In this document: in pieces, positions 22,205 to 57,585 of the stretch | Layout of the letters: each line of letters starts with the position of its first letter | Numbering within the stretch: position 1 is the first letter of the stretch | Source of the DNA: a virus | Taxonomy: Duplodnaviria > Caudoviricetes | DNA length: 64,000 nt | Reading direction: 5' to 3' (one strand) | Virus record (IMG/VR): IMGVR_UViG_2551306247_000001 | Span: 30,298-94,297 of that record | Notes under the pieces: generated by a model | Seen by the model: only the letters and a program-made list of their open reading frames with translations | What the model was told of the DNA's origin: nothing | The model's database searches: none | Made by a program: the position numbers and the translations under genes

Positions 22205-22243
22205 TGTCCCCTTAACACACAACTTACTATTATCTCTTATACT
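22205..22243 (+). promoter_or_regulatory. 39-bp bipartite promoter motif, copy 1
   Basis: TGTCCCCTTAACACA-N11-TATCTCTTATACT. Confidence 0.8.
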
Positions 22244-22273
22244 AAAACTAATTAAAGAAAAGGAGGCCTTCAG

Positions 22274-22549
22274 ATGGCAAAAAAAGATCTGATTAAAATT
22301 GATAATGAACTGGAAGAAGCTAAGAAAAAAGTAGCGTTTTTAGAAAATGAACGTAAGGCTGCCGAAGAAAATCTTCAAAAACAAATTGGTAAAATCTACG
22401 TACAGATACAATTAAAAAAAGACAAAAATCAAACTTATGATTCAATCCTAGATGATCTCAAAACAGAGCTGGCGATTATCAAAGAAGAGGAAAAAGAGAA
22501 GCGCCAGGCAGCTAAAATGGTGCAAGAAGCAGGAGAACAAAACACCTAG
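22274..22549 (+). CDS. Small coiled-coil protein
   Basis: 91 aa, RBS AAGGAGG. Confidence 0.7.
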   Translation: MAKKDLIKIDNELEEAKKKVAFLENERKAAEENLQKQIGKIYVQIQLKKDKNQTYDSILDDLKTELAIIKEEEKEKRQAAKMVQEAGEQNT

Positions 22550-22559
22550 ATGTTCTCAC

Positions 22560-22960
22560 TTCTCAGCTGAAAAATCACTCTGTTTGAATTGTTAAATCTA
22601 GTGTGTGTTTGTAGCTGTTACGGTGTGTATAGGTGTGTGTTTTCGCATTCGTTGTGTGTGTAGGTGTGTAAACGCAGTGTGTGTAAGTAGGCGTAGCCGA
22701 GAAAATTACCGGTACGGGAAACGTTGATACTATCAACATATCACGCCTAGTGATATCAGTTTCCCTTATGCTCTTTTCTAGCACAGCACACCCAAAAGGC
22801 ATTAGCCGCAACAGTGTGTGCTTGTGTGTGGAAAAACCGCAACAGTAGAACCTTACAGGTTCGTGACGTTGCGAGGTTGAGGTTTTCTTTTTTGCTTCTT
22901 TTTTCCTTTTGCCTCGCCAAAAGAAAAAAGAAGGGCGTCTAGCTGATAGGAAGGGCGGTA
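22560..22960. other. Putative oriT
   Basis: Intergenic region upstream of two RHH-like genes and the relaxase; GTGTGT repeats, nested inverted repeats at 22716-22765, CCCTTATGCTCT at 22763-22774. Confidence 0.72.
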
Positions 22961-22966
22961 ACTGAA

Positions 22967-23302
22967 ATGGCAAAAAGCCACCAAACAAGAATTGAAATTC
23001 GAGGACTATCTGCTCAAGAGGTAGATTACTTAAAGGCCCTTGCGAGGGAAGCCAAAGCAAAATCATTGAATGAATTTTTGCTTGGCATGTGTCGTGAAAA
23101 AATTGAAAAAGGTCAGTTCAATTTTGTTGAAGCGAACTACCTTGCTCATTTAGAAAATATGAAACTGACATCATATCATGTCTTGCTTTTGACTGAAAAG
23201 CAGACAGGTCTTTTGTCTGTTTTTGAAGAAAAAATGACCCGCTATGCAGATCATATTTCGAGGTGGTTAGAATATGAAGGAGAGGTCGATAGCAGTGACT
23301 AA
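22967..23302 (+). CDS. RHH-type relaxosome auxiliary protein 1
   Basis: RIEIRGLS..EVDYLKALA..SLNEFL strand-helix-helix pattern next to the oriT. Confidence 0.65.
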   Translation: MAKSHQTRIEIRGLSAQEVDYLKALAREAKAKSLNEFLLGMCREKIEKGQFNFVEANYLAHLENMKLTSYHVLLLTEKQTGLLSVFEEKMTRYADHISRWLEYEGEVDSSD

Positions 23303-23642
23303 AAATTTTATTATACGTAATGTTCCTGAAAAAGTATTTACGCAATTAAAAATGATATCGAAAGGATATGAGTATTCATCTTTTAATGAATTTATGCTGG
23401 CCCAACTTCAACGAATTGTTGAGAATGATGGATTGGATTTATATGATAACAAGTTTGCAGAAACGCTGGCAGACATTAAGGAACAACAAGCGAAAATCTT
23501 GGAGATGTTACTTAGAAATGAAATCAAGTTATTAGGTTGCAGCGCCAAACAAGATATTGTAGAAGAGCTAACAGTAGATTGGCTTCGTTTCATGGATGAT
23601 GTTGATGCACTTGCCGCTGAACGAGGAGGAAGTTGCTTATGA
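23295..23642 (+). CDS. RHH-type relaxosome auxiliary protein 2
   Basis: NFIIRNVPEKVFTQLK..SFNEFM RHH pattern; probable GTG start. Confidence 0.65.
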   Translation: MTKNFIIRNVPEKVFTQLKMISKGYEYSSFNEFMLAQLQRIVENDGLDLYDNKFAETLADIKEQQAKILEMLLRNEIKLLGCSAKQDIVEELTVDWLRFMDDVDALAAERGGSCL

Positions 23643-24430
23643 AGAAAAATAAATTCTTGTTAGTCAGTATTATATTTACGGCCATTCTTCTAGTGCAGCC
23701 ACAAAATTTTCAATTTTTAAAAAGTACGTTCACTCAAAATGATTTGGCCAGTCAGTTGAATATCTCAGATTCTCCTGAAGAAAAAAATGCTGATTTGAGA
23801 AACGCCCATCACACCCAGAATGAGGAATTAAAATCAAAAGTATTTGATGGTCAAGAACAAATAATTGTGGTCAATGAACGAGCACAGTTTACGACAGAAG
23901 AATTGAGTTTAGAAAATGGTTCCTGGGAAAACTATAGTGATCTAGATTTTTTGAATCGTGTCGGAGTTGCTGAGGCAATGCTAGGCCAAGATTTGATGCC
24001 GACAAGCGAACGTGAAGATATTTCATCTGTGAAACCTACTGGCTGGAAAAATAAAAAAATCGTGTTCAATGGAAAAGAAGATTATTTGTATAACCGCTCA
24101 CACTTGATTGGTTTTCAGTTAAGCGGAGAGAAAGCAAATGTAAAAAATCTATTTACAGGAACACGGGCACTCAATGCAAATCTTGATGATGAAAAATCGT
24201 CAATGCTCTATTATGAAAATTTGGTTGCCGACTATATTAGACAGTCGGGCCATCATGTCCGTTATCGAGTAACCCCACTCTTTAAAAATGTGGAATTGGT
24301 GGCACGTGGTATTCGTCTGGAAGCACAAAGTGTGGAAGATGATACCATATCATTTGATGTTTATATTTTTAATATCCAACCAGGATATGAGATTAACTAT
24401 TTGACAGGTACTTCAGAAAAATTACAGTGA
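23639..24430 (+). CDS. Secreted/anchored DNA/RNA non-specific endonuclease (EndA/streptodornase-like)
   Basis: Signal/anchor peptide, LDFLNR, PTGW, YNRSHLIG and VRYRVTP motifs. Confidence 0.88.
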   Translation: MKKNKFLLVSIIFTAILLVQPQNFQFLKSTFTQNDLASQLNISDSPEEKNADLRNAHHTQNEELKSKVFDGQEQIIVVNERAQFTTEELSLENGSWENYSDLDFLNRVGVAEAMLGQDLMPTSEREDISSVKPTGWKNKKIVFNGKEDYLYNRSHLIGFQLSGEKANVKNLFTGTRALNANLDDEKSSMLYYENLVADYIRQSGHHVRYRVTPLFKNVELVARGIRLEAQSVEDDTISFDVYIFNIQPGYEINYLTGTSEKLQ

Positions 24431-24437
24431 GGATAAT

Positions 24438-24893
24438 ATGACAAAAAGAATCAACGTCTATTTTAACGAAGAGACATTACAGAAGTTCAGTGAAATAAGA
24501 AACTACTTGGAAGAAGAAATGGGAGGCAGTTTGAACCGTCAAAGTCCTAATCATTCGGCCACAGTTGTTAAGGTGATTCATACTTTTCATAAACTGTTTT
24601 TAGAATCAGGAGAAAAGCAACCGTTCGCAGAACGGCTGTCTCGGCTGGAAAAAAATTTGGCCAATTCAGATGAGCAAAAAATTCTAAAATCAATTCGCCA
24701 TCAAATGGACCAGCTGCTCTACTTGGAGCTGACCAATTTTCATGCACTCACGAAAGGAAATCAGTTTGACATTCAAGATCTGGAGTCCATTCACTCTCAT
24801 TTTGATCCAAAGCAAAATGAATTGATCGCACGTATTGACGATATTATTAAAGAGGATGTTAGTCGAGGACAAGTAATCAAACATTCTCATTGA
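24438..24893 (+). CDS. Possible RHH DNA-binding protein
   Basis: MTKRINVYFNEETLQKF N-terminus. Confidence 0.55.
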   Translation: MTKRINVYFNEETLQKFSEIRNYLEEEMGGSLNRQSPNHSATVVKVIHTFHKLFLESGEKQPFAERLSRLEKNLANSDEQKILKSIRHQMDQLLYLELTNFHALTKGNQFDIQDLESIHSHFDPKQNELIARIDDIIKEDVSRGQVIKHSH

Positions 24894-24903
24894 GGTTCTA
24901 AAA

Positions 24904-25464
24904 ATGACAGATATTATTGACCTATATTTAGAGACAGGTGACTTTCATGAAGCAGTAAAGAAATCTGGCTTACCGACTCATGTTGCTCACTTACAATTGA
25001 TTAAAAGCGGCTGCTTAAAAATTCAAGATAAAATTCAGTATGGTTCTCGGACTGCCCGACTTGGAGGAATGGCTGAAGAGCTTTTTCAAAAGTATGTTCC
25101 TGAAGCAACAGATGCCAATAAGTACTTCAAGAAAAACAATCCTGTCTACGATTTCTGGTTTGATGGTTTAACAATTGATGTGAAGTATAGTTCGCTGCAC
25201 AAAAGAAAAGATGGAGACTCTTATCATTGGCAATTTAGAGTAAAAGGAGATCAGGACTTCATAGTTGCCTTTCTAGAACGAGAGAGTGGTTTGGAATTAG
25301 AACAACCAAATATCTTATTGGTTCCAATGCAATTTATCGAGGAAAAGAAGGAGCTACATATTTCTCCTTCTGGTCCATGGTTTAATGGATTCAAGGTTGA
25401 AGCTGAAGAGTTGCAGCCGCTGCTGAAAGACTATGCTCGATTAAGGAAAGATGGTTTATTTTAA
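24904..25464 (+). CDS. PD-(D/E)xK nuclease-fold protein
   Basis: GGMAEELF..PVYDF..TIDVKYS. Confidence 0.55.
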   Translation: MTDIIDLYLETGDFHEAVKKSGLPTHVAHLQLIKSGCLKIQDKIQYGSRTARLGGMAEELFQKYVPEATDANKYFKKNNPVYDFWFDGLTIDVKYSSLHKRKDGDSYHWQFRVKGDQDFIVAFLERESGLELEQPNILLVPMQFIEEKKELHISPSGPWFNGFKVEAEELQPLLKDYARLRKDGLF

Positions 25465-25479
25465 TTAGAGAGTGGTGAA

Positions 25480-27849
25480 ATGATGAATACGTCTTCTAGC
25501 CCGAATATCACGTTCATGCTGCAATATACAGAGGCAAATAGCCAGTATGTTGATTACACTAATCGTAGCGAAGCGGTCAAAATAGATGAGGAACTATCTT
25601 TAGAAATCAACCGCCAAATGATTGAAGGATTGACTGAGGCGGAGTTGAATCGTATCCAGAAAGCCGTTCCTGAAACACAGTTAAACTTTCGAGAGTATAT
25701 TGATTATATGAACCGTTCTTACGCTACAGAATCGCAGTCAGAAGAACTGACTGCTGTCTTTACGCAAGAAGCCGACTATCTTCAAAAGCGACGGTTAACG
25801 GATTTGAAAAATCAGTTAGAGGCCGCTTACCAAAATGGATCTCTACTTTGGCAGGGTGTTATCTCATTTGATAATACTTTTCTAGCTAAACAAGGTTTAT
25901 ATGACGTTGTGACTGGACAAGTTGACCAAAAAGCAATCAAGACTGTTATGCGTGATATGATGCCAACACTCATTCAGAAGGAAAGACTTTCTGACTCGGC
26001 TTTCTGGTGGGGGAATATCCATCTTAATACTGACAACATCCATATCCACTTTGGTTTATCAGAGGTTGAGTCAAATCGTGAAAAAATCTTTTATCGTCCA
26101 CGAGGTCGGATGGAATATAAGGGAAATTTTTCTCAAAAAACAATCAATCGATTTAAAAGTGGTATCTATCACGGGCTTCTAAAAGAGGAGACACGGTCAA
26201 ATCTTCTGCGAAAAGAGCAGGTGCTGGCTAACCTTAAAGCTAATTTACTAACTTCAGTTTACCAGGAAGACAAAATTACCTCTTCAGCTGAAAAAAATTT
26301 TTTGGAACAAGCCTACAATCACTTGCCAATGGGTAAGAAGTGGCGGTATGGGTCTAATGCCAGGGATTTTGCGGTGAGTAAGTTCTTTCTGGATCGTTAC
26401 CTAGATTCTTATTTGCAGAATGAAGGAAATGCTGCCTATCAAGAGTTTTTACAGGAAACTAGAGAGTTTCTTGCGACTTATGAGGGTGTCTATTCAGCTG
26501 AAAAAAATCAAGCCTATGAGAAGATCCGAAAGGTTGATGGAAGAACCATTCGGTCATTGTCAGAATCGAAAGGCTATGATCTAGAACATCATCTGGCCCG
26601 TCGAGTTATGGATCTAAGAGAACGGTTGGCCAATAATATCCTTCATTCATTTAGAGAGGCAGCCCCTCAAATTCAAAGCCTTCAGCTGGAAAAAAATTTG
26701 GATAACTTTTCTACTCTGAACCAGGAAAAAATATTAGAACGACTACCTGAAGCCAGTGTAGTAAAAAGCAAAGAAGCCTGGCAAAAACTAGGCTATTCAG
26801 TGAAGGCTGGAGAAGAAGCGCTTGAAATTATAAAACCTGTGTACGGGGAATATGATGAAAACGGCAAAGGAAGAGGTCGGCCAGATTTTGTAACAGACTA
26901 TGTTTATGATGTCAGTCAGCTGACAGAGAATATCCAGATGAAGACTATGACCCTAAGGGAACTATCCTTGTTATCATCGGATGAGCTAAAAGAGCTGGTT
27001 GATGCTGCTAAGTTGAAATCAAATCCAACTGAAAAAGAACGTCGTGAATTAGGGACTTTCCGTTATGCTTTGAAATTAAGTATGCTGGAAGCAAGTCAGA
27101 AAGAATTACAGATCCAACAAAAACTCTTGGATCAGCTTCAACCTCTAGCTTCTGATCGGCCGTTTATAGATTTCAAGAAACAGTCAATCAATCAGGAATT
27201 GGAAGCAATTAAGCTACAGCTTACCCCGAATTTCAAACTGTCTGATGAGCAGCAGCTACTGAGACAACGCTTAAAGAATCAATTTGAAGACAGCGTTGCA
27301 CTCCCTATCAAAAAGGCTACTGCTGGAACTATCCAGCTTCCGATCAGGCAACTACGTACGGAGATAGATTTTGCTAGTCGACTTCAGGATGATAGTGTCC
27401 TATCACTTCTGAAGGGTTCTGCGACGACAAAGGAAGCCTATATTGAGGAACTTCAAACTCATGTCTCTATTTTTCAGCTGAAATACCATATTAACGCCCG
27501 AAACCAACAGATGGAACGACTATCAGATGAATCAGCTATCAAGCAGCTGAGGATAACTAATGCCCAGGGCTTTTCAGAATTGAAACGCTTATATGCTAAA
27601 TTACAACCGACCGAAGAAAACCAAAGTCAGATTGTTCAAGCTGTTTCTAAACAATTGCAGGAGCGGAAAGTTGTTAAAAAAGCCCAACTGCAGCAGTCAA
27701 AAGGAGCTGCTAGGATAAATACAAACTTCATGCGACAGCTAACAGCTTCATTGAAGCGGTCTCAACAAGCAAGTAAAAAAGCCCTTATGGACCGTGCTAG
27801 AAGTGATGAACGTGAGGAGCAAGAAGAGCGCAAACAAGCTCAGCGATAA
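25480..27849 (+). CDS. Relaxase, MOBL (MobP2-type)
   Basis: YVDYTNR/YIDYMNR, WQGVISFD and HLNTDNIHIH (3H) motifs. Confidence 0.88.
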   Translation: MMNTSSSPNITFMLQYTEANSQYVDYTNRSEAVKIDEELSLEINRQMIEGLTEAELNRIQKAVPETQLNFREYIDYMNRSYATESQSEELTAVFTQEADYLQKRRLTDLKNQLEAAYQNGSLLWQGVISFDNTFLAKQGLYDVVTGQVDQKAIKTVMRDMMPTLIQKERLSDSAFWWGNIHLNTDNIHIHFGLSEVESNREKIFYRPRGRMEYKGNFSQKTINRFKSGIYHGLLKEETRSNLLRKEQVLANLKANLLTSVYQEDKITSSAEKNFLEQAYNHLPMGKKWRYGSNARDFAVSKFFLDRYLDSYLQNEGNAAYQEFLQETREFLATYEGVYSAEKNQAYEKIRKVDGRTIRSLSESKGYDLEHHLARRVMDLRERLANNILHSFREAAPQIQSLQLEKNLDNFSTLNQEKILERLPEASVVKSKEAWQKLGYSVKAGEEALEIIKPVYGEYDENGKGRGRPDFVTDYVYDVSQLTENIQMKTMTLRELSLLSSDELKELVDAAKLKSNPTEKERRELGTFRYALKLSMLEASQKELQIQQKLLDQLQPLASDRPFIDFKKQSINQELEAIKLQLTPNFKLSDEQQLLRQRLKNQFEDSVALPIKKATAGTIQLPIRQLRTEIDFASRLQDDSVLSLLKGSATTKEAYIEELQTHVSIFQLKYHINARNQQMERLSDESAIKQLRITNAQGFSELKRLYAKLQPTEENQSQIVQAVSKQLQERKVVKKAQLQQSKGAARINTNFMRQLTASLKRSQQASKKALMDRARSDEREEQEERKQAQR

Positions 27850-27851: not shown

Positions 27852-27882
27852 AGTCATTGATGTTTTATCAATGGCTTTTTTC
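27852..27882 (+). terminator. Intrinsic terminator after the relaxase
   Basis: AGTCATTGAT-GTTTT-ATCAATGGCT followed by a T run. Confidence 0.75.
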
Positions 27883-27902: not shown

Positions 27903-27941
27903 TGTCCTCTTAACACAAGGATTTTGATTATCCCTTACACT
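27903..27941 (+). promoter_or_regulatory. 39-bp bipartite promoter motif, copy 2
   Basis: TGTCCTCTTAACACA-N11-TATCCCTTACACT. Confidence 0.8.
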
Positions 27942-27973: not shown

Positions 27974-28231
27974 ATGTTACATTTCCCAGGTGTATCAGAA
28001 AAAGAGTTTGATTTTGATGCTGATTGGTTGGTAAAAGCAACCGATGATATTCAAAAGAAAATTCTTTTTGTCGGTCAAGGAAAAAATGGTGATCTAGAGT
28101 TAGAACTTGATTACCAGGCTAATCCAGAGCAGTTTGAGAGTTTTTCAGTTGGAGAACTTGTTCAACTACCAAGAGAAATTTTCCTGGTACCTGAAATAAT
28201 ACCTTACCAACCACAGTACGAGTGTTTTTAG
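27974..28231 (+). CDS. Small acidic hypothetical protein
   Basis: 85 aa, RBS AAGGAGG. Confidence 0.7.
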   Translation: MLHFPGVSEKEFDFDADWLVKATDDIQKKILFVGQGKNGDLELELDYQANPEQFESFSVGELVQLPREIFLVPEIIPYQPQYECF

Positions 28232-28249
28232 TGAATGAAAGGAGTCTTT

Positions 28250-31200
28250 ATGGCAGAAGAACATACACAGCAGCCATCATCACGAGGAAAGAGCCGTCGA
28301 GAGAGGGTCGAGTATGCCAGGTCACGTGATATTTTAGATGTTGCTAATGAACTTAATATTGAGCTGGTTCAATCAGGACGAGACTATCGCTGGAAAGAAC
28401 ATGATTCTATGGTTGTTTCCACTAAAAAAAATATGTGGAATTGGTTTTCACGTCATCAGGGTGGTGATGTTATTGCTTTAGTTCAAACAATAAAAGAAGT
28501 TGACTTTAATCAGGCGATTGATTTTCTCAATGACGGCACCTTTAAAGAATTTACAAAAGTCGAACATGTGCAGGAACCCTTTTCTTATTATCTGGCTCCT
28601 TATGAGCAGCCGTTTGAAGCTGCTAGAAGCTATCTAAAAGACCAACGTGGGCTTTCAGATGAAACCATTGGTTTTTTCTTTGAAAAAGGGGTACTTGCCC
28701 AGGCTAATGCCAAGGTAAACGGAAGTATCGAACCCGTTGTTGTCTTCAAATCACTTGATTTTTCAGGTGAGATTGTCGGAGCTACACTACAAGGTATTGA
28801 AGAAAATTGGGAGAAATGGCCTGAACGTGGCTATGCTAAGAATATTGTCAGAAACTCAGACGGTATTATTGGTATGCACGTAGATATCGGCCAACCTAAC
28901 CGCCTTATCTTTGCGGAAAGTGCAATTGATCTAATGTCTTATTATGAATTACACCGAGACCACCTTCAAGATGTGCGGTTAATCTCAATGGATGGTCTGA
29001 AGGAAGCAGTTGTGGGCCGACATGTGGCGCAACTCCAGTCGGAAGTTTCAGGACGGCCTCTGACCTGGAGCCATGATCAGCTGGCGGAGGGGTTGCAGAC
29101 TGCGATCGATAACGGCTTCTTTGCAGATGGTAAACATGCAGATTGGATCACCCTGGCAGTTGACAACGACGAAGGTGGACGGAATTTTATCGCCTCTTTA
29201 CGTGAAAAAGGGGCTACTGTTACTGAGGATTTGCCTCTTTTGAAAGAAGGGCAAGTAAAAACTGACTGGAACGATGCACTCAAGCAGCCTCCTATTGATA
29301 ATAGTCGCTTAGGTCAAGCTAGACGAAAACTAGATCGTTTGAATCAGGAATTCTCAGATGCTACAGAAGCAGTTTATGGACACGCGGCGCAGACAAATGG
29401 CCAGCCAATGAATGATAAACGTGGCGGTGCTAGATTCTTTAAACGTCAAGAACAGCTGGAGAATAGAGTCTTTGATAAGTTGAATGAAATCAAGAAGCAA
29501 GAAGAACGTGTTGAACGGCTAGAACAACAGGCAGAGTTCAAGGAACAGGGGCTCAATCGTCAAGGTACAGGCCTTGAGATGAGTGTTCAAAATATACCTC
29601 GGATAAGAGAAGAACTTGAAAAGGCGGAACGTGGGGAATCAATGTATACCAAAGCCACCCTTAAACGCTACCGTGAGGAGTTAACTCGTCTGGAGAAAAT
29701 TTCAGAACAGCTTGCAATGACAACCATTCAACCAGGTGCTCAAGCCTTGATAGAAGCTGGCAGCGTAACACAGTGGGAAAAACGGCCCAATCTGTACTTT
29801 GTAAAAGGACTACGTCGAGTAGCTCTTGAACTTGGTGAAGATGGAAACTTTAGAGAATCCGCCGGATACCGTCCACGTACTGCTGAAGAACAAGAGCGAG
29901 TTAATGAACTATTAGAACAACAGGGCAAGAACGAGGGTGAACCTCAGATTTCCACAGTTGAAGCAGAACACAAAGAAGGGTTAATTCATGGGCAAACAAA
30001 CGAGGGACAAGGTCTTCTATTTGAAAATCTTGTCGATGTAATACCAGCTTCAAATCATGCAACGGTACCAGAATTACAAGTTGTTTTTGATTTCTCAGAG
30101 AATCCAAAATTGTCTAATCTGTATTCTTCAGAAGAGGTCATCCCTTATAATGACTTCATAGCTAATCTATATGAGGAAAATGAGTGGCAATCCATCAGCC
30201 CAGACTTAGGGTATTATAAGACTTATTTTGCTTTGCAAGACGAATCAAGGAATCCTTTAACCCCCAAAATCCGCTTTGATATTGGTAGTGAAACTGAAGA
30301 TCTCTCTGAACAATTGAGTCAGGATTTACCGAGTCCGTATTTGGAGTTGGCTCAAAAGGCAGATCATGACTACCATGCCAAAGTGTCCTATGATACTTTT
30401 AAAGCTAATCAAAAAGGACTATCTGAGGCAGTTCAAAGTCAAATTCAAGCGGGTGTCTTGCAGGTTACTCTCTCAGATGATGCCTATTTCTATACCTTGG
30501 TCAACTATACTGGGTGGAGCCATCCTTTGCAGCAGTTGAAACCCAAAGCACTAGAGGGATTGAAAGAGTATCGTGCATTCTTTGAATCCATCAACGATAC
30601 TAATATTGAGCGGTTTAAAGAAAAAGGTACACCTGAACAGAATCGGATGTACGATATCTTAAAAAACCTTCAAAAAGATTTAGGTCGTTCAAATACTTCT
30701 ACGGTCTTTTCAGAAGAAATAGCAATCAGTGCCTATAATCTCAATCGAAAATTAGAAAGTTTGACAGCTGAAAATTGGGCTAGTAGCATTGTAGATCCAC
30801 TAGGCTCACTAGGCCGTGATGTATGGAATATTATCAATTACCCTGCTAACGACATTGTGACTGGAAATACAGACTACTATTTCCAGATAGTCCCCTATCA
30901 CCTGCTAGAATACCTTAACGGTAAAACTGGAATTGTTGAAATATCTCTGGAAACTTATAATCATATTCTTCAACAGTTGAGAGATGAAGAAATCATTATT
31001 GCTCCTGAAACGCCTGAAGATGTTGCACAGGTAGAACATGGGAAGAAATCAACAGCTGAAGAAACAGTGCATGAAGCCCCTGCTTTATCGTCGGGAGGCT
31101 CAGAAGTTAGTCAAGAGGACCAAAAATGGCTAAAGGAGAACTGGGAGAATATTCGTTTCACTGTTCAGCCACCAAAAACTATCACAGGAAAAGATGAGGC

Positions 31201-35272: not shown

Positions 35273-35279
35273 TCAATCA

Positions 35280-45893: not shown

Positions 45894-45900
45894 TCTTTAA

Positions 45901-45942
45901 TTGCAAAGATCCAGGTTCTTACAGGACTTGGATTTTTTGCAA
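45901..45942 (+). terminator. Hairpin terminator
   Basis: ATCCAGGTTCT-TAC-AGGACTTGGAT followed by a T run. Confidence 0.7.
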
Positions 45943-45972
45943 AAAGTCAATGATAAAAAAAAATAAAAATAG

Positions 45973-46001
45973 TTGACTTTGCAGATTTTATAGTGTATAA
46001 T
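45973..46001 (+). promoter_or_regulatory. Consensus sigma-A promoter for the surface-exclusion operon
   Basis: TTGACT-17-TATAAT with an A-rich UP region. Confidence 0.75.
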
Positions 46002-46061
46002 AATATTGTCCTAGAAAAAGTGTAGGGTAAATAACAGCAACTGAGAAAGGGGGGAGCTTTA

Positions 46062-46418: not shown

Positions 46419-46430
46419 ATAGGTGATAAA

Positions 46431-48995: not shown

Positions 48996-48998
48996 TCA

Positions 48999-49637: not shown

Positions 49638-49640
49638 GAA

Positions 49641-50204
49641 ATGACAGAACAGCAAAAAGCAGTTATTACCAAGGAACAAGCTAGATTTTTGGCACATCTT
49701 GAGCTGAAAAGCTATGCTGTCAAAATGGATGCCATTGCCAGAGCAAATACAGAACTGACTTTTCAGAGTGATTATGACCGAGAAGAGTTTGTGAAGGCAG
49801 TCATGGCAGATGATTGGGTCATTGACACGGGCCATTATTTAATCAATGTATTGGCTCCTTTGCAGGAAAAAGGCTTTATCACTGCAACCACAAATAATAA
49901 TCCATTATCAGGCGAAGTTGTGTATACTGTCACGGCCGACGTGGCGAAGGCGGCACTCTTTACCGAGGAGGAACTTGGAAGCATTAAAGCCTTGCAGCCA
50001 TACGTTAAGACAGAATTTTTGATAGCGGAGTATGATGCCATTAAACGCTATGGCCATGTGATGGACTGGTTGAATGAAGCTGACCAGGGACCTGGGACAG
50101 TAGAGGAAAGCGAAGTAGCTTCTCCAGAAGGATTGACTGTTGCAGATTCCAGTTCGGAGGAGCCAACGGTACACCATGCCAAAGCCAATTATCGTATCAA
50201 GTAA
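49641..50204 (+). CDS. Hypothetical protein
   Basis: 187 aa, in operon. Confidence 0.65.
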   Translation: MTEQQKAVITKEQARFLAHLELKSYAVKMDAIARANTELTFQSDYDREEFVKAVMADDWVIDTGHYLINVLAPLQEKGFITATTNNNPLSGEVVYTVTADVAKAALFTEEELGSIKALQPYVKTEFLIAEYDAIKRYGHVMDWLNEADQGPGTVEESEVASPEGLTVADSSSEEPTVHHAKANYRIK

Positions 50205-50218
50205 GAGGAGGAGAAGAG

Positions 50219-50641
50219 ATGCAAACTTTTATTGCTGACGGAAGAGTAGCGAGCATTCCAGATGATGCTGTCGGCAGAACTTCTAAAGGAAATGCCAGCT
50301 TCAAATTCGAGTTTGTTTGTGATTCAAGTCTACAAGATGAACAAGGAAAACCAATACCAAGTTATTTCCATGTTCAGATATATGGCAAACAAGCTGAAAT
50401 GATGGCTCAAAGTCTTGTAAAAGGTTCTCCTATCCTGGTAAAGGGAGAAATTATCCAACGGCCTTATCAAGATAGTCAAGGCCAACGTCGATACTATCAA
50501 TATATTTCCCCAGACCAGAATCGAGGGATCACTTTTCTGGAGACTAAGGATGCAGCCAACAAACGTAGACAGGGAATGCAGGTTCCACCGCCACCGCCTA
50601 CTGACTATCCAGAACCATTTGATTCAGGAGAACCCTTCTAA
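50219..50641 (+). CDS. ssb: Single-stranded DNA-binding protein
   Basis: OB-fold pattern (GR..IYGKQAE..LVKGS..VKGE), Pro-rich linker, acidic tail ending EPF. Confidence 0.82.
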   Translation: MQTFIADGRVASIPDDAVGRTSKGNASFKFEFVCDSSLQDEQGKPIPSYFHVQIYGKQAEMMAQSLVKGSPILVKGEIIQRPYQDSQGQRRYYQYISPDQNRGITFLETKDAANKRRQGMQVPPPPPTDYPEPFDSGEPF

Positions 50642-50651
50642 ACTAACAAAG

Positions 50652-50686
50652 TAGCATGTGAGATAAACCACTCACGTGCTATTTTT
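50652..50686 (+). terminator. Intrinsic terminator after ssb
   Basis: TAGCATGTGAG...CTCACGTGCTA followed by TTTTT. Confidence 0.75.
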
Positions 50687-50732
50687 GTTTTAATCAGGGT
50701 CCTGAAACCGCTGTTTATATATAGTTTCTACT

Positions 50733-50771
50733 TGTCCCCTTAACGCAGAAAAGGCTAATATCCCTTAGACT
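50733..50771 (+). promoter_or_regulatory. 39-bp bipartite promoter motif, copy 5
   Basis: TGTCCCCTTAACGCA-N11-TATCCCTTAGACT. Confidence 0.8.
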
Positions 50772-50807
50772 AAGAGTGTGCAAAAATATAAGAAAGGATG
50801 GTTGCTT

Positions 50808-51065
50808 ATGATGAAGCAACAAGTAGAATATCAATCAGATGATCTGATGGCTGATTCACTTCAAATAGAAAATTTCCTGAAGCAAGGTAGAACATGCCAT
50901 CTATATACTGTTCAATTGGGCATCGAAGCAGGTGTTAGCTCCTATCTGGAGCGTTACCAGCTAGCTTCCTCTCAGCAGAAATTCAAAATTTTCCTTTTCT
51001 CTACGCTTTATGGTGAGAAAATCAAACGCTTTTTAGAAGATATGCGAGGTGAGCAACGTGTTTAG
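50808..51065 (+). CDS. Hypothetical protein
   Basis: ATG after AAAGGA, overlaps the virD4 start. Confidence 0.6.
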   Translation: MMKQQVEYQSDDLMADSLQIENFLKQGRTCHLYTVQLGIEAGVSSYLERYQLASSQQKFKIFLFSTLYGEKIKRFLEDMRGEQRV

Positions 51066-54000
51066 TTGGCTAGAAGCGATTTATTACACTCTGGTCCAGC
51101 TTGCGAAGATTAATCCCTTTAATGCAATACTCATAGTCAGTTTTGTCAGCTATCTTTGTTACCAGGGGGTTAGGACTATCAGGAAGCCATTGCATGACTT
51201 TCTTCAGGTGATGAAAGGCTTTATAGATGATAAAGATATCATAAAACAATACTTCATGGACAAAAAGGAAGCGCTACTACATCCCTGGAGACATCGACGT
51301 GAGGTTGACTGGGGCTCAGCTGGAAAAGAAATAGGGAAGAAAGCCTGGCGATATTTTAAACGATGTGCAACAATTGTTCCCTCATTCTTGTTCCTGCTCC
51401 TGGGGAATATTCTTTTTCGGCTCATCTACAAACTGCCCTTTGTTCAACCAGACAGGAAGCGTTTCGACAAAGAAATGAAGCCTCTGCTATATTTCAAAAA
51501 TGTTCGTAGCTTTGTGCTTATGGGGATAGGGTTTAGCTTCATAGCCTTTATTATCACAAACTATTTTGTGACTGTATTAAGGGCAGCAATTCGTTTTCTT
51601 TATTTCTCGGTCATGAGTTTGCGAGATAGTAGCCTAGTAGATAGCTTTGACATCGATAGCTTGTTAATTCAAAACCTATTCAATGCTAGGGTATTTGTGA
51701 TTGCTCCAATTCTGGCAGTGCCTATCTTTCTGGTTAGTTTGGTGATAGCTTGGCGATCAGCTTGGGTAAACTTTGAGCAGTATCGAGACTATAACCACAA
51801 TGAAGAAGGTGATGATCGCTTTGCGACAGTCAAGGAAATCCACCAACAATATAAGAAGGTCCCAAACAAGACAGAAATCTATCCAGGTGAAGGAGGGGTT
51901 CCTGTTCTCCACGAAACAAGGAAGAGCCTATCAGGACTAACTCTAGGTTCTCAAATGCTCTGGCAAAATCGTACGTTTAGCCGTTATCTGACGAACGCAG
52001 AAAGAATACTAGGGATCTATTCCAAACCTTCAGGGGACTACTATATAGAAGACAGCACAACAAACATGCTGGGTATTGGTATGACTCGTTCAGGTAAAGG
52101 TGAGGGGCATATCACGACAACAATTGATATTAATAGTCGGGCTGAGATACAGCCGTCTATGGTCTTGGCTGATCCGAAAGGTGAGCATTATCAATCCTCT
52201 TACAAAACCATGCGTCGACGTGGTTATGATGTCAATGTCCTATCTTTCCAGAATATGGACTGGTCAATGTCTTATAACCCTCTAGCTCTAGCAATTGCAG
52301 CTGCAAAGAAGGGCTACTATGAAATGACTCAGACAAGGGTAAATGCAGTCGCTGAAGCAATCTATCGTAAAACAAAACCAGGTGTTGGCAATGGTAACGC
52401 AAAATACTGGGAAGATACATCTATTTCCCTCTTCAATGCGATTGCTATGGCTTTAATTGATCGTGCTAATGAAACCTTTAAGAATGGAGAAACGGATGCT
52501 TGGGACACGGTCACTGTTCGTAACATTGCCAAGTTTCTAACTGATTTGGGTTCAGAAGAAGTATTTGTTAATGACTTTGGAGAAATCGTTGAGAATCCAG
52601 ACCGTGATCAGCCAGTTAAGAAGAAATCAAAAATAACAGTTTACTTTGATAACTTACGTAAGATTAACCAGGAACAGTTTTCTAAGTTTAGAGATATGGC
52701 AGACTTGAACTTCAGGTCCTCAGATTTTGCCTCTGAAGAGACCAAGGGGAACGTCTTCTCCAGTATGATGTCTGGAATCAACCTCTTCTTACAAGACAAT
52801 ATTGCCAAGCTCACGTCTAAAAATTCTATTGACTTGGAATCGGTTGGTTTCCCACGTCGCCTGTCGATTAAGTTCCGATCAAGCTCTAATGTCGCTATGC
52901 GTAACGAATACGCCCACAAGACGGCCAAGGTTACGATTATCAGTCAAACAGCTTGGGGCAAATCAACTAGACAAGTTGTTCACGTAAACGCAGCTACGGC
53001 TCTTATCGATGGAGAGGGCTATCTAACCTATGTGATTGAGCCAAAACTTCCTGATAAGTTTGTAGTAACGATCGATTTTGATCATGAGAACAATGGTGAC
53101 TCTATTATTCGTGATAGCACCTTCCAATTTTCAGCTGAAAAAGTTTATAAGAAACTTGGTAAGGTAGTTGCTCTGGACGAGTATACGAAGAAACCAATAT
53201 TGGATTATATCAAAGTCTCCATCCTAGATAAGCAAGCAGACAGTCTTCTCCAGGAAGAGGATATTGAGTTTGTGTATTCAGATAATCCAAAAGTGATTTA
53301 CCTGGTCACACCGCCAAACCGAACAGAATACAACAGTATTGTATCTCTGTTCCTGGATCAGCTGTTTAATGCCAATTATGAGCTGGCCCTGTCGAATGGT
53401 CGTAAATGTGTTAATCGCATCCTCCATATTCTAGATGAGTTCACCAATATTCCAGCCATTCCTCATATGGACACCAAGATTTCAATCGGTCTTGGTCAAA
53501 ATATCTTATACTATCTCTGGATTCAGAACCTCAAGCAGCTAATTGACAAGTACGGTGAGAATATTGCTGAAACCATTAAGGAGAACTGTTCGCTCACAGT
53601 TTATATCAAATCAACGTCTAATACTACGAACACTTCCATTAGTAAGGACCTCGGTACTCGGACCATCACACGTCGGAGACGGTCAAGCAATATCCTAGAT
53701 GAGGCTAATCCAAATGTAGCCATTGAAAATCCAAAACAGGAACTTCTAACGCCTACACAGTTAGCCAAGCTACAAGAAGGAGAAGCGGTTATCTTACGTG
53801 GAGTTAAGGGCCGTGACAATGTAGGTCGCAAGATAACAACGGACCCAATTTTCCTACACGAGAAAACCAGTCTACCGTATCGCTATATGTTCCTTCAAGA
53901 AGAGTTTGATCATTCGATGACCTTGGCTGATATTCCTGTAGAAAGTGGCCATAGAGAGCTTGACTTGCAGGATATTGCAGTAGGGGCCCAAAGTACCTTT

Positions 54001-54207
54001 GGTAAGATTATTGATTGGCGGATAGCTCTGACGGACCGTATGAGGACCAATGGAGAAACACCTAAATTGGCTACGAGAAGGCAGGAGAATAAACCATTGA
54101 GTCAGGCCCGTTTCACCTCTCCAGTTGAATTGACTCAAGCTGTAATTGCTGAAGTTTTCGATGATGAGGACGAAGATGACATTTTCTTTGTAGATGATGT
54201 TATATAA
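51049..54207 (+). CDS. virD4: Type IV coupling protein, VirD4-like
   Basis: N-terminal TMs, GMTRSGKG (Walker A), DPKGE, YNPL, ILDEFTN (Walker B), IQNLKQL..YG. Confidence 0.9.
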   Translation: MSNVFSWLEAIYYTLVQLAKINPFNAILIVSFVSYLCYQGVRTIRKPLHDFLQVMKGFIDDKDIIKQYFMDKKEALLHPWRHRREVDWGSAGKEIGKKAWRYFKRCATIVPSFLFLLLGNILFRLIYKLPFVQPDRKRFDKEMKPLLYFKNVRSFVLMGIGFSFIAFIITNYFVTVLRAAIRFLYFSVMSLRDSSLVDSFDIDSLLIQNLFNARVFVIAPILAVPIFLVSLVIAWRSAWVNFEQYRDYNHNEEGDDRFATVKEIHQQYKKVPNKTEIYPGEGGVPVLHETRKSLSGLTLGSQMLWQNRTFSRYLTNAERILGIYSKPSGDYYIEDSTTNMLGIGMTRSGKGEGHITTTIDINSRAEIQPSMVLADPKGEHYQSSYKTMRRRGYDVNVLSFQNMDWSMSYNPLALAIAAAKKGYYEMTQTRVNAVAEAIYRKTKPGVGNGNAKYWEDTSISLFNAIAMALIDRANETFKNGETDAWDTVTVRNIAKFLTDLGSEEVFVNDFGEIVENPDRDQPVKKKSKITVYFDNLRKINQEQFSKFRDMADLNFRSSDFASEETKGNVFSSMMSGINLFLQDNIAKLTSKNSIDLESVGFPRRLSIKFRSSSNVAMRNEYAHKTAKVTIISQTAWGKSTRQVVHVNAATALIDGEGYLTYVIEPKLPDKFVVTIDFDHENNGDSIIRDSTFQFSAEKVYKKLGKVVALDEYTKKPILDYIKVSILDKQADSLLQEEDIEFVYSDNPKVIYLVTPPNRTEYNSIVSLFLDQLFNANYELALSNGRKCVNRILHILDEFTNIPAIPHMDTKISIGLGQNILYYLWIQNLKQLIDKYGENIAETIKENCSLTVYIKSTSNTTNTSISKDLGTRTITRRRRSSNILDEANPNVAIENPKQELLTPTQLAKLQEGEAVILRGVKGRDNVGRKITTDPIFLHEKTSLPYRYMFLQEEFDHSMTLADIPVESGHRELDLQDIAVGAQSTFGKIIDWRIALTDRMRTNGETPKLATRRQENKPLSQARFTSPVELTQAVIAEVFDDEDEDDIFFVDDVI

Positions 54208-54263
54208 CAAGGTAAATAAAAAGTTATATAACCATTGAGCGAACATAATATTTCTGTTATAAT
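54199..54263 (+). promoter_or_regulatory. Two GTTATATAAC operators plus a sigma-A promoter for the lipoprotein gene
   Basis: Palindromes at 54199 and 54223; TTGAGC-17-TATAAT with TG extension. Confidence 0.68.
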
Positions 54264-54293
54264 GAAGCCAAGAAATATCAAGGAGAGTTCACT

Positions 54294-54776
54294 ATGAAGT
54301 TGAAACGTTATCTAAGTCTATTTGTACTTGGTATCGCTCTGGTTGTTCTGGCAGCCTGTGGTCAAAAAACCTCTGAGGACATTGTCAAAACTGAATTAAA
54401 GGATAGCTACGTTGGTTATTCAAGTTTTCCAGGGTATGATAGCTTAATCTTCACTGGGGGTGGACAGGAAATCGTTTTTGATAAGAAAAATCATAAACTG
54501 AAGTCAGGGGATGAAGAAGTTTATTATGAAGTCGTTCCTGAAGATAAACTATCTAGCTCTATGAAAGGAATATTGGCTTCTCATGAGTCAGAATTAAAGG
54601 GAGAACACTATTTCGTTATTAACGTTGGATATCATGAAGATGATATCTGGGGGAAATTAGGCGACCAGCTCTACTGTGTTGTTTTATCAGAGGAAGGACA
54701 ATCAATTCGTATATTCGAGTTTGAAACTGGATATACCTCTGATGGTTATTTTGACTTTACAGGTGAAGCTGAGTAA
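54294..54776 (+). CDS. Lipoprotein, candidate entry-exclusion factor
   Basis: Lipobox LAAC; own promoter and terminator between virD4 and the virB6-like gene. Confidence 0.75.
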   Translation: MKLKRYLSLFVLGIALVVLAACGQKTSEDIVKTELKDSYVGYSSFPGYDSLIFTGGGQEIVFDKKNHKLKSGDEEVYYEVVPEDKLSSSMKGILASHESELKGEHYFVINVGYHEDDIWGKLGDQLYCVVLSEEGQSIRIFEFETGYTSDGYFDFTGEAE

Positions 54777-54780
54777 AGGA

Positions 54781-54805
54781 AAAGTCTCAATTTGAGGCTT
54801 TTTTT
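54781..54805 (+). terminator. Intrinsic terminator
   Basis: AAAGTCTCA-ATT-TGAGGCTTT followed by a T run. Confidence 0.7.
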
Positions 54806-54818
54806 CTTTCCTATGATT

Positions 54819-54857
54819 TGTCCTCTTAACGCAGGAATTTTATTTATCCCTTATGAT
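54819..54857 (+). promoter_or_regulatory. 39-bp bipartite promoter motif, copy 6
   Basis: TGTCCTCTTAACGCA-N11-TATCCCTTATGAT. Confidence 0.8.
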
Positions 54858-54890
54858 GAGGGTATCATATAGAGAAAGCAGGTACCTTAT

Positions 54891-57188
54891 GTGACTTATG
54901 ATACTTACTCTGATCTGGTCAATTCATTAGAAACAGGATTCTTGGATATTAATGGTGCGACAAATGGAAATATCACAGGAGAAAATGCGGAAAAGATGGC
55001 CTCCTTTTATAAATATTGGAGTAACTATCTGGATTCTACTCCAGCTTTTCTATCTTTCTTAGCTTATATTCCAGGTGGAATTGCCAAAGCCTTGTATTCT
55101 ATTACAGCCAGCCTTGAACATGTCTTTAACAATATGTTCAAGCTCTTTGGTTTATTTGGCTACTTAGGTGATAGCAACACGGTTATAGGTCAGTTCTATT
55201 TTTGGTTCCAAATTGTCGGAACCAGCCTCTTTAGCCTAATTCTTGTTGTTTCGGCTATCACTGGAGTCTTTACAAAGCCAGTCAAGTATAAAGGGGTGAT
55301 TACTAATTTCCTCTTAGTTACAATGGTGACAGCAGTTCTTCCTTTAGCCTTGACGACTATATCGTCTGTCATGGCCCAAGATGCGATGAATATCCAGACG
55401 ATTTCTAGCGATGCACCGGACGGAAGCAAGCATTATTCATCCTTGGCGATCCAGCCTATGAAGAACAATATCGTAGATCTCAAGGTACTGATTGACAATG
55501 ACTTTTCAACGGAGCTTTTTCCTCTAGATGATTATGGCTACATTAAGCCACCAAAAGAAGGTTCAACACCCGTCAATAATATTACGGATAGTCTTGATAA
55601 GCGAGATACTAGCGACTTTGCAACACGAATTGATTTTGGGGCAACCTATGGAGCTACTAGCTCTGGATTGTTAGAGGTGCTGGAAAAGAAGCTTCCAGGA
55701 ATAAAGGGATTGTTCTTGCATAAATTAAATGCCAATCAGGACGGTGTTGAGACTATCACACAACACCGTGTTGTCGGTCAGTTAAATGCCTTTGAGCCAG
55801 TCTATATGCGGTACAAGGTCAACTGGATAGGGATGTTCATGCAGTACATTATCCTGATTGTTTTGTTGATTTCTATGTCAATCAAGTTTGTTAAGTCGGT
55901 CTTCGATATTGTGGTGGAAGCCATGATTTCACCAATCCAAGGATACTCTTCCTTGTCCAACTCTAAGAAGTATAAAGAGCTTTTACGTACAATGGGAGGC
56001 GCACTGGCAGGTATCTTCTTTGAAGTTGTGATTATGCGTGTAACCCTTGAAATCTTCCGAGATTTGCCAACTTTGTCGGTTTCGGCAGTAACAAAACTTT
56101 CAGGCGGTTTCTTTGATGGACTGAACATGTGGGAACAGTGTCTAGCGGCCTCCTTGGTATATATTGGCGTTTTCCTGGCAGCCATGCAGGGAGTGACAAT
56201 GATCGAACGTTGGTTGGGTGTTTCTACTGGCCACAGTGACACTGCACAGCAATTGCTAGGTGCGATGATGATGGGGAACGCTTTTGCGACTGGAGCGGGT
56301 GCAGTAGGTAACGGTGCTATGGCATTGGGTGGTTTTGGTCTTGATATGGCTAAGAAAGCCCCAGGCGCATTTGCAGCAGGGAGCAAAGTCCTTGGAAACA
56401 GTCTAGCAACGACAGGTGGCGGTATTCGAGGAGCTATCAACGCTGCTAGGGATCAAGGAGCCTGGAATGCAGCTAAAGGTGGTGTCAGCAACATGGTAGA
56501 CCTGGCTGATGTGATGGGCAAAGAAGCAGTAGGTAAGGCGAAAGACTTTACAGGTGCTATAGCGGACAATTTAGGTAAAAAAGAACAAGCTGCTCATGAT
56601 GCTGTCTACAAAGGTTTGAAGAATGATGCGGTTCCGCCACGACCAGGTTTTAATGATAATGGGGAGTATACTTTAAATCCTTCAGGTCAGTACGGTGGTG
56701 AAGGACTATCTCCTGAAGCTCCTTATGAATCCCAGGCGGTTGACAATGGCGATAGTAGTCCGAATGACGGAGGTATTACTGATCCAAACATACAGTCAGC
56801 AGAAGTATCTGACAACATCGACAGTGGTCCAAGTGGTGGAGGTATTATAGATCCAACGGCACCGCCTACAGAGCCAACTGGTGAAGCCTTTGGAGGCATC
56901 AGTGACCCAACTGGAACTCCCTCAGGAATATCTGGTAACTCCTCTGGTGGAATTAAAGACCCAGCTTCTTCATCTGAAAAAAGCACTCATCCAATTGAAA
57001 ATAGCCCACTTCTAAATAATCCCCACAACAGCTCTCGACCAACTGGCGGTTCAACCCCTCCTAGACGTAGTCTCGATCAATCGATGCAGCAAATGAACTA
57101 CATGAAGCACCAAATGCAGCAAGCAGGTCAATACATGCAAGGTCAATCGCATATCAGCGGTGCAGAGATTGATGAAAATGAGGAGTAA
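54891..57188 (+). CDS. VirB6-like polytopic conjugation membrane protein (pLS20_p028-like)
   Basis: Multiple TMs, YMRYKVNW, IERWLG, G/A-rich and low-complexity tail. Confidence 0.75.
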   Translation: MTYDTYSDLVNSLETGFLDINGATNGNITGENAEKMASFYKYWSNYLDSTPAFLSFLAYIPGGIAKALYSITASLEHVFNNMFKLFGLFGYLGDSNTVIGQFYFWFQIVGTSLFSLILVVSAITGVFTKPVKYKGVITNFLLVTMVTAVLPLALTTISSVMAQDAMNIQTISSDAPDGSKHYSSLAIQPMKNNIVDLKVLIDNDFSTELFPLDDYGYIKPPKEGSTPVNNITDSLDKRDTSDFATRIDFGATYGATSSGLLEVLEKKLPGIKGLFLHKLNANQDGVETITQHRVVGQLNAFEPVYMRYKVNWIGMFMQYIILIVLLISMSIKFVKSVFDIVVEAMISPIQGYSSLSNSKKYKELLRTMGGALAGIFFEVVIMRVTLEIFRDLPTLSVSAVTKLSGGFFDGLNMWEQCLAASLVYIGVFLAAMQGVTMIERWLGVSTGHSDTAQQLLGAMMMGNAFATGAGAVGNGAMALGGFGLDMAKKAPGAFAAGSKVLGNSLATTGGGIRGAINAARDQGAWNAAKGGVSNMVDLADVMGKEAVGKAKDFTGAIADNLGKKEQAAHDAVYKGLKNDAVPPRPGFNDNGEYTLNPSGQYGGEGLSPEAPYESQAVDNGDSSPNDGGITDPNIQSAEVSDNIDSGPSGGGIIDPTAPPTEPTGEAFGGISDPTGTPSGISGNSSGGIKDPASSSEKSTHPIENSPLLNNPHNSSRPTGGSTPPRRSLDQSMQQMNYMKHQMQQAGQYMQGQSHISGAEIDENEE

Positions 57189-57192
57189 ATCA

Positions 57193-57477
57193 ATGTTTGA
57201 TGTTGCGGGTAAGGTTATTGTGATCACAGGGAGTTTACGCCCAATGACCAGGCAAGATGTAATTGCCTTTCTAGAGCGTAGAGGGGCGGTTGTTCAGAAT
57301 TACATTTCGGCTCAAACAGATATTCTTATTGCTGGTCATAAGCAATTAAATCTCTTTGATCCTGATAAACGTTCCAAGAAATATGAGGCTGCTATGTCTA
57401 GAATAGCAGAAGGGCAGTCAATCATCATTTTGTCAGAAGAAGAATTTTTCAATATGGTTAAAGAGTCTCAGCTTTGA
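57193..57477 (+). CDS. Stand-alone BRCT-domain protein
   Basis: GKVIVITGSL..MTRQD..GA.V...IS..TDILIAG..SKK..A..I.ILSEEEF. Confidence 0.8.
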   Translation: MFDVAGKVIVITGSLRPMTRQDVIAFLERRGAVVQNYISAQTDILIAGHKQLNLFDPDKRSKKYEAAMSRIAEGQSIIILSEEEFFNMVKESQL

Positions 57478-57496
57478 GGCTCTTTTTATGCATAAA

Positions 57497-57518
57497 GATA
57501 TATAACTTTTTATATAAC
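57497..57518. promoter_or_regulatory. Two near-consensus GTTATATAAC operators, 12 bp apart
   Basis: GATATATAAC-TT-TTTATATAAC, just after a terminator hairpin (about 57461-57487). Confidence 0.55.
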
Positions 57519-57546
57519 AAATATCGTGATTGTCAGCTAGGCAGTT

Positions 57547-57585
57547 TGTCCTCTTAACGCAGGAAATGTCATTATCTCTTATGAT
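57547..57585 (+). promoter_or_regulatory. 39-bp bipartite promoter motif, copy 7
   Basis: TGTCCTCTTAACGCA-N11-TATCTCTTATGAT. Confidence 0.8.

Follow-up and report, generated by a model that had tools for sequence, protein, structure and literature searches.

A probable conjugation regulon of seven activator-dependent sigma-A promoters in a TnGBS1-like element

Here, we propose that seven copies of one promoter motif, dispersed along a TnGBS1-like conjugative element, are activator-dependent sigma-A promoters forming a single conjugation regulon, with an element-encoded helix-turn-helix (HTH) protein of 164 amino acids (aa; 14817-15311, + strand) as the activator. We hold this proposal, which is drawn from sequence comparison and structure prediction, to be somewhat better than an even bet. 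The element lies in a 64,000-nucleotide stretch of the IMG/VR record IMGVR_UViG_2551306247_000001 (the window, whose coordinates are used below), which covers bases 30298-94297 of its contig and shares the contig's end. A first-pass annotation, made from the letters of the DNA, had described the motif and attributed it to an element-encoded activator or alternative sigma factor.

In the mechanism that we envisage, host RNA polymerase with sigma-A would be unable to use the seven sites unaided. An element-encoded activator, most likely the 164-aa protein, would bind a conserved sequence (box 1) just upstream of the absent -35, in the class II manner, and once bound would recruit or stabilise polymerase. 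The variable C-terminal HTH of this protein would read box 1, and its near-invariant N-terminal domain would make contact with something conserved, presumably polymerase. With the activator at shared promoters and the operons insulated by terminators, all transfer operons would switch on together. An activator is favoured over a sigma factor because five elements yielded no sigma-70 domain match and because the hexamer TANNNT is invariant.

The motif itself, TGTCCYCTTAACRCA-N11-TATCYCTTA, was found exactly where the first-pass annotation had placed it: a window scan tolerating up to three mismatches returned seven matches (starting at 22205, 27903, 35371, 39041, 50733, 54819 and 57547), all on the + strand and all with no mismatch. 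Shuffled versions of the window gave a mean of 0.01 matches and reached seven in 0 of 100 shuffles. A shortened pattern recovered the identical seven sites in the window, as did a search that covered all 94,297 bp of the contig and tolerated as many as five substitutions, which found none besides. Box 1 alone, at no more than one mismatch, gave eight matches against 1.15 expected, the extra one lying on the - strand within a gene (24118), and the half-site TATCYCTTA occurs three further times in the contig, each in isolation. The fixed geometry previously claimed also holds, with a spacer of 11 nt and a CTTA-to-CTTA distance of 25 bp in all seven copies (a consequence of exact matching). Every copy is intergenic and points in the direction of the genes. 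The claim that each ends in a -10-like hexamer ahead of a start codon, with no -35 at 17 bp, is likewise upheld: the hexamer stands 28-36 nt before the likely start codon (start codons read by eye), and the sequence 17 bp upstream of it is ACRCAN in 7/7 copies, which is not a -35.

To see the anatomy of these sites, 34 motif copies from five elements were aligned and the positions beyond the search pattern examined. Several unconstrained positions proved to be conserved: T0 (33/34), A19, A25 and T26 (32/34 each), T39 (34/34), T45 (33/34) and a purine at 46 (33/34), none of them in the search pattern. The hexamer TANNNT occupies motif positions 34-39 in all 34 copies. Sigma-A promoters typically show such a pattern, TANNNT as the -10 followed 6-7 nt later by a pyrimidine-purine step at the start, and on this basis we predict +1 at motif position 46. 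Four RNA runs under the same species label put 0-1 reads on 38500-58499 and so have no bearing on the predicted starts. Relative to the predicted +1, box 1 (TGTCCNCTTA..RCA, motif positions 1-15) spans about -45 to -31 and a second box, box 2 ((T/A)TATCYC), about -20 to -14. The layout is thus that of a class II activator-dependent promoter, with a -10, no -35 and a conserved box adjoining the -35 position.

The same alignment bears on a rival reading that we consider unlikely, in which a divergent element-encoded sigma-like factor, be it the 164-aa protein or another unannotated one, replaces sigma-A, with box 1 and box 2 playing the parts of -35 and -10, respectively. A bipartite motif with fixed spacing would suit such a factor, as would the distance of about 16 nt from the end of box 1 (around position 12) to TCYC (29-32), which in our own reading resembles that of extracytoplasmic function (ECF) promoters; small sigma factors are also close in size to 164 aa, and one distant member of the 164-aa family gives a sub-threshold match to Sigma70_r4_2 (E 0.011), as it does to other HTH families. 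However, the invariance of T39 while positions 36-38 vary, together with the pyrimidine-purine step 7 nt past the hexamer, places the -10 at 34-39 and not in box 2, and one class of elements (class D, below) retains TANNNT although its box 2 core has decayed. No Pfam Sigma70_r2 or Sigma70_r4_2 match at E <= 1 was found inside five complete elements, the sigma genes of the hosts themselves being detected, and the N-terminal model of the 164-aa protein consists of helix, coil, short strands and one long helix, which does not look like the helical bundle of sigma region 2 and has no specific structural match. Of the two kinds of factor initially put forward, comparison therefore supports the promoters and the regulon and favours an activator, while no sigma-70 domain was detected for the other.

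Two further models of the motif were tried and rejected. The CYCTTA direct repeat, with its copies 25 bp apart, does not behave as the functional core, as the second core decays in class D and TTAT and TANNNT stay. By eye, no conserved dyad or second repeat is present of the kind expected for a MerR-type long-spacer promoter or for CiaR/VicR-type repeats.

The two halves of the motif differ in how they vary. Among class A elements, the hexamer middle and downstream region show 0.79 identity between orthologous slots vs 0.40 within an element, whereas positions 11-25 show 0.71 identity within an element vs 0.66 between orthologous slots. Because these identities differ, the upstream half appears to behave as though read by something element-specific and the downstream half as though tuned per operon. 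The classes themselves differ in box 1. In class C (G029 and G404), TGTCC turns variable, CCCTTAAYGCA is fixed and box 2 is retained; in class D (G040 and G338), box 1 reads TGTCCCTTTAA and the box 2 core decays, with TTAT and TANNNT retained. Three unclassed elements (G134, G386 and G257), in which the 164-aa protein is 59%, 50% and 41% identical, respectively, carry other box 1 sequences, and the TTATCYCTTA-type box and hexamer are nearly unchanged in G386 and G257 and only partly so in G134. At a finer scale, motif positions 6 and 11-13 are element-specific and not slot-specific, with CTG at 11-13 in 6/7 copies of G011, ATG there in 6/7 of those of G384, and position 6 being G in 7/7 copies of G350; this suggests either that the copies within an element are homogenised or that they co-evolve with its factor.

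What, then, might read box 1? The left backbone of the element is free of the motif and has few conserved genes, among which 14817-15311 alone has DNA-binding features; it is the first backbone gene and stands outside the regulon. Co-variation was assessed by comparing 30 backbone proteins between class A and class C. Class C has an altered box 1 at all seven dispersed promoters, and its backbone nests within class A, the A-C identity being no lower than the within-A identity in 22 of the 30 proteins. The 164-aa protein is the top outlier of the 30 (79.2% within A vs 69.0% A-C), the next-largest drops being 5.4 and 3.0 points. Fixed A/C differences number 11 in the 164-aa protein (6.7 per 100 aa), and seven of them fall in residues 119-135, the predicted recognition helix, which reads SLFNTRLRRNWKR in class A and PLSYKQLIRGRKR in class C.

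The predicted structure of the 164-aa protein is consistent with such a role. Its N-terminal 70 residues are highly conserved, and the AlphaFold model (pLDDT, the model's own confidence score, 80) adds to this conserved portion one long helix and, at the C terminus, a unit of three helices. Residues ~85-133 form a predicted three-helix HTH, of which the predicted recognition helix (~119-135) is variable, and they align with the small HTH DNA-binding domains of Sin recombinase, GcrA, Tc3 and TrpR (Z 5.1-5.7). Three of ten distant family members have sub-threshold HTH matches in the same C-terminal region. In comparisons of the whole model, a wide structure search gave generic matches only (Z up to 6.1), Foldseek found nothing below E 3.5 with either the whole or the N-terminal model, and the ESM Atlas held only unnamed clusters (0.77-0.78). 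The family profile searched against PDB sequences gave nothing below E 0.24, and the protein has no Pfam or NCBIfam match, NCBIfam matching none of the small proteins. The family is narrow, with 42 cluster representatives at E <= 0.001 among 1.84 billion proteins, and homologues named from S. agalactiae reach 84% identity. Some sources name the protein “modification methylase Sau96I” and others call it hypothetical; we find no support for the methylase label.

The other regulators initially suggested fared less well. None of the 15 other elements in the comparison has a counterpart of the protein encoded at 46062-46418, which is dropped as a candidate, and that of 24438-24893 sits inside the first motif-driven operon and by eye resembles a ribbon-helix-helix (RHH) accessory protein. 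A further protein, of 186 aa (24904-25464), came second in the A/C contrast and was rejected, being missing from 6 of the 16 elements compared, all 6 of which retain the motif. The candidacy of 14817-15311, in turn, gains support from its position, its predicted HTH fold and its co-variation with box 1.

Several observations weigh against the 164-aa protein as activator, or limit what the co-variation can tell. As the two class C elements are closely related, the contrast between A and C is one evolutionary event, and rank 1 of 30 is suggestive and not proof. No recognition code linking helix residues to box bases was found across the classes, and G134 has a class-C-like box yet a different helix. 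Box 2 is constant where box 1 changes, and our proposal names no reader for it. The HTH fold matches are generic (Z below 6), as are those of the N-terminal domain model (pLDDT 84, predicted template modelling score 0.70), which has no specific structural match (Z at most 6.5). One genome with four motif matches (G177) gave no 164-aa homologue, its assembly being fragmented. Lastly, a 31%-identical homologue on a Ligilactobacillus salivarius megaplasmid (L107, NZ_CP007647.1 112202-112756) lies directly ahead of a relaxase gene, a location that would also fit an accessory role in the relaxosome. This L. salivarius locus is a TnGBS1-like, transfer-defective remnant; by eye, a related promoter-like sequence stands ahead of its operon, to which we give little weight.

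The strength of the seven sites bears on another reading, which we regard as rather unlikely: that they are constitutive sigma-A promoters silenced by an element-encoded repressor on box 1 and/or box 2. Repressors control most characterised Gram-positive conjugation systems (reviewed in PMC6540685); box 2 overlaps the sequence immediately ahead of the -10, which is favourable for a repressor, and operon 1 encodes several RHH-like proteins (by eye). But the sites have neither a -35 nor a TG-extended -10 and their hexamers match TATAAT at 4-5 of 6 positions, so that they look too weak for constitutive promoters, and box 1, lying upstream of the -35 position, is poorly placed for repression. By contrast, the ordinary promoters of the element do possess a -35 and a -10. 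The first-pass annotation had assigned such promoters to parA and the exclusion genes; sigma-A-like promoters were found ahead of parA (62820-62848, 11/12) and, with a TG, ahead of the lipoprotein gene at 54294 (54235-54263), a putative exclusion gene.

Across TnGBS1-like conjugative elements the motif is conserved. In the five related genomes compared, 5/5 carry seven same-strand copies within one element and the reversed pattern has no match, so that the motif search across such elements bears out the seven-copy architecture, which is kept whereas the flanks diverge. We also surveyed 401 sampled Streptococcus genomes at up to two mismatches, alongside a control: 64 have at least one match (control, two matches in total). 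Same-strand copies number exactly seven in 11 genomes and six in a further two. The 164-aa protein has homologues in 39 of the 401 genomes and in 14 of the 15 with at least three motif matches. Many of the single matches are a recurrent chromosomal sequence, TTCCCTCTTATTCCAC..., seen in genomes with no 164-aa homologue (e.g. G262, G398, G214 and G248), and we treat them as unrelated. When one genome per species was searched for exact matches, 35 motif loci turned up in 11 records, all Streptococcus, the named ones including S. suis, S. hyointestinalis, S. orisratti, S. porci, S. sinensis and S. oralis.

This distribution makes it improbable, in our view, that the motif is read by a regulator or alternative sigma factor of the host, into whose regulon the element would plug. 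A conserved host partner would account for the constancy of box 2 and the hexamer across very divergent elements, and streptococci do have ComX and, in some hosts, an ECF-type sigma. Nevertheless, no match in the five genomes falls outside the element and a deleted derivative of it, bar one 3-mismatch match (in G004) judged to be chance; box 1 differs among element classes within one genus; an ECF-type sigma is above cut-off in only 3 of the 5 host genomes; and the motif is unlike the ComX box. The deleted derivative, in G002 (C1:1715001 and 1721299-1721775), accounts for the one further motif copy that this genome has elsewhere, which stands ahead of a p028/VirB6-like gene. The derivative retains its own 164-aa gene, a PriCT gene, two RHH-like genes and a lipoprotein gene. 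G002 has the 164-aa gene a third time at 1818012.

Family matches of the downstream proteins agree with the earlier view that the seven copies, all on the + strand, precede transfer blocks. Copy 1 (22205-22243; box 1, spacer, box 2 and TATACT; predicted +1 at 22250) precedes operon 1 (22274-27849), which encodes a coiled-coil protein, two RHH-like proteins, a nuclease, the 151-aa and 186-aa proteins and a MobL relaxase. Behind copy 2 (27903-27941; TACACT; predicted +1 at 27948), operon 2 (27974-35272) encodes an 85-aa protein and a 2345-aa polyvalent protein, and behind copy 3 (35371-35409; TATGAT; predicted +1 at 35416), operon 3 consists of a topB-like gene (35438-37186) and a gene for a Clp-type ATPase (37188-39020). 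Copy 4 (39041-39079; TACACT; predicted +1 at 39086) precedes VirB2-like and TcpC-like genes and a variable adhesin/LPXTG block with an AgI/II adhesin (operon 4), and copy 5 (50733-50771; TAGACT; predicted +1 at 50778) a 95-aa open reading frame (ORF) and VirD4 (51049-54207; operon 5). Operon 6, behind copy 6 (54819-54857; TATGAT; predicted +1 at 54864), comprises the genes for a pLS20_p028-family (VirB6-like) membrane protein (54891-57188) and a BRCT protein (57160-57477). Finally, copy 7 (57547-57585; TATGAT; predicted +1 at 57592) is followed by operon 7, with a VirB3-like gene, a split VirB4 (57920-58567 and 58583-60532), a CHAP/glucosaminidase gene (60820-62157) and 62170-62757. The VirB4 halves are ORFs of 215 and 649 aa, and since the split is kept in all relatives compared it looks natural and not broken. 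Within operon 4, 40558-50204 is variable cargo: it encodes an AgI/II-type adhesin, LPXTG proteins and products without an assigned role, is hardly or not at all represented in relatives, and contains a sigma-A-like promoter of its own (45973-46001, 11/12).

The terminators that had been noted ahead of six of the seven copies are also present, five by terminator scan and one by folding. Terminator-like hairpins on the + strand precede copy 1 (22161-22186), copy 2 (27852-27876), copy 3 (35279-35302), copy 5 (50648-50685) and copy 6 (54777-54805), and a 6-bp hairpin with a U-run that the scan missed precedes copy 7 (57465-57487, + strand). For copy 4, which starts 20 nt past the clp-like stop codon, no preceding terminator was found. 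These hairpins tell against a role of the motif at the level of RNA or DNA, as a processing, antitermination, recombination or replication site, which we judge to be highly improbable: with six of seven copies following a terminator, little read-through RNA would reach them. The length of the conserved stretch (about 50 bp including the spacer) would be in keeping with such a role, and processive antitermination exists in the related conjugation operon of pLS20. On the other hand, an Rfam scan at gathering score gave no family match, no conserved self-complementarity is seen by eye, the spacer varies, and the strict co-orientation, like the constant distance to ribosome-binding sites, is in keeping with a promoter.

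By gene content, the element fits a TnGBS1-like (ConjTnGBS1) conjugative element, TnGBS1 itself lying outside the comparison. The ConjTnGBS1 family has a relaxase class, “Rel-III”, in which no domain was recognised in 2016 (PMC4701971); the relaxase here (25480-27849) is now recognised by Pfam MobL (E 1.5e-52). The coupling protein and VirB4 expected of a TnGBS1-family member are both present, with VirD4 domains in 51049-54207 and matches of the VirB4 model NF045975 to 57920-58567 and 58583-60532, at scores below the model cut-off. The backbone further encodes a PriCT-domain protein, SSB and ParA. A megablast search of 39000-58000 against plasmids found no match. On the left, similarity to relatives starts at about 14633; a 12-bp hairpin with a T-run, also conserved, comes next (14678-14705), and we place the left end at 14633-14705 (+ strand). 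In the complete genome G001 the syntenic element spans 1428945-1473156, and a gene for a 443-aa UPF0236/ISLre2-type DDE transposase closes its right end. The contig of the window stops at 64000, short of the right end and the transposase.

In three relatives (G001, G002 and G003), a small acidic ORF of about 60 residues lies between the left end and the 164-aa gene (L036:18945-19241); in the window a deletion has reduced it to a 14-codon remnant (14745-14789). It is possible that this ORF encodes a modulator of the activator. Relatives also have a strong outward sigma-A-like promoter, TTGCGC-17-TGTTATAAT, past the transposase terminator near the right end (L039:3200-3300 in G001; equivalents in L043 and L046), which after circularisation would face the left end and the 164-aa gene, with the T-run hairpin at 14678-14705 in between. 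As the 164-aa gene is the first inside the left end, behind this hairpin, and the right-end promoter points outward, the activator may be expressed in step with excision and circularisation.

The record is labelled viral, yet two thirds of the window are conjugative element. Window positions 1-8135 are the end of a prophage, with a 1498-aa, tail-sized ORF and an amidase/LysM/CHAP lysin (6666-8135), and phage-sized ORFs fill contig bases 1-30297 upstream of the window. Between prophage and element, 8359-10855 holds two serine-recombinase genes, then a gene for an Mrr-type nuclease and two genes without an assigned role, a region with no counterpart in related elements. The second serine recombinase is split into two ORFs, 9467-10429 (Resolvase and Recombinase domains) and 10457-10855 (zinc-ribbon domain), and may therefore be interrupted.

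A master activator of transfer operons is already known from Gram-negative elements. AcaCD of IncA/C plasmids and SetCD of the SXT/R391 integrative and conjugative elements (ICEs) each serve as one element-encoded activator of many dispersed transfer operons through a shared box that overlaps or adjoins a weak or absent -35, which is the same logic as proposed here. They differ in being FlhDC-type heteromers, in Gram-negative hosts, as opposed to a single 164-aa protein of an unannotated family with an unrelated box; no FlhD or FlhC family was found among the window proteins scanned with Pfam, and one FlhDC row in the fold search is generic (Z 5.1). In the middle promoters of phage T4 (MotA box, sigma-70 -10 and AsiA), the primary sigma of the host likewise reads TAnnnT, with the -35 replaced by a box for a small element-encoded DNA-binding protein. 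The likeness is one of logic only, the MotA box lying at about -30 and box 1 at about -45 to -36, and no AsiA-like or MotA-like protein was identified in the element.

The closest characterised transfer machinery is that of pLS20 of Bacillus subtilis, which has in common with our element a MobL relaxase, a pLS20_p028-family membrane protein and, by eye, two RHH-like proteins ahead of the relaxase. In contrast to the seven promoter-like sites here, six of them preceded by a terminator, pLS20 has one long transfer operon under one repressor-controlled promoter (PMC6540685). The TnGBS1/ConjTnGBS1 ICEs share the relaxase class, VirD4, VirB4 and a Streptococcus host and, in the case of relatives, the right-end UPF0236/ISLre2-type transposase. 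In one preprint (10.1101/2022.03.15.484266), S. agalactiae NEM316 serves to mobilise plasmids that carry oriT-TnGBS1. The first-pass annotation knew of no description of the motif, and the literature that we searched, which stops short of the main TnGBS paper and of all supplements, contains no account of the motif, its geometry, promoters or regulators of the TnGBS1 family or the candidate family.

More speculatively, the 164-aa protein may found a new, narrow family of polymerase-directing factors, in which the N-terminal domain would dock on the polymerase of the host and the fast-evolving HTH would read a box at -45 to -36, such that each TnGBS1 lineage would own a private, co-evolving set of activator and promoters and would fire its seven operons without cross-talk; we offer this as a tentative possibility. 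An element-specific box paired with a variable recognition helix would make these elements a natural system for studying the co-evolution of an activator and its sites. For annotation, the motif is a sharp marker of TnGBS1-like elements, in which seven same-strand copies mark an intact element and single copies flag remnants. The shared promoter type and the single candidate factor also make the control of the transfer genes directly testable. TnGBS1-like elements carry genes between streptococci of animals and people, and if our proposal is true, they would have in this regulon a Gram-positive counterpart to the master-activator regulons of Gram-negative plasmids and ICEs.

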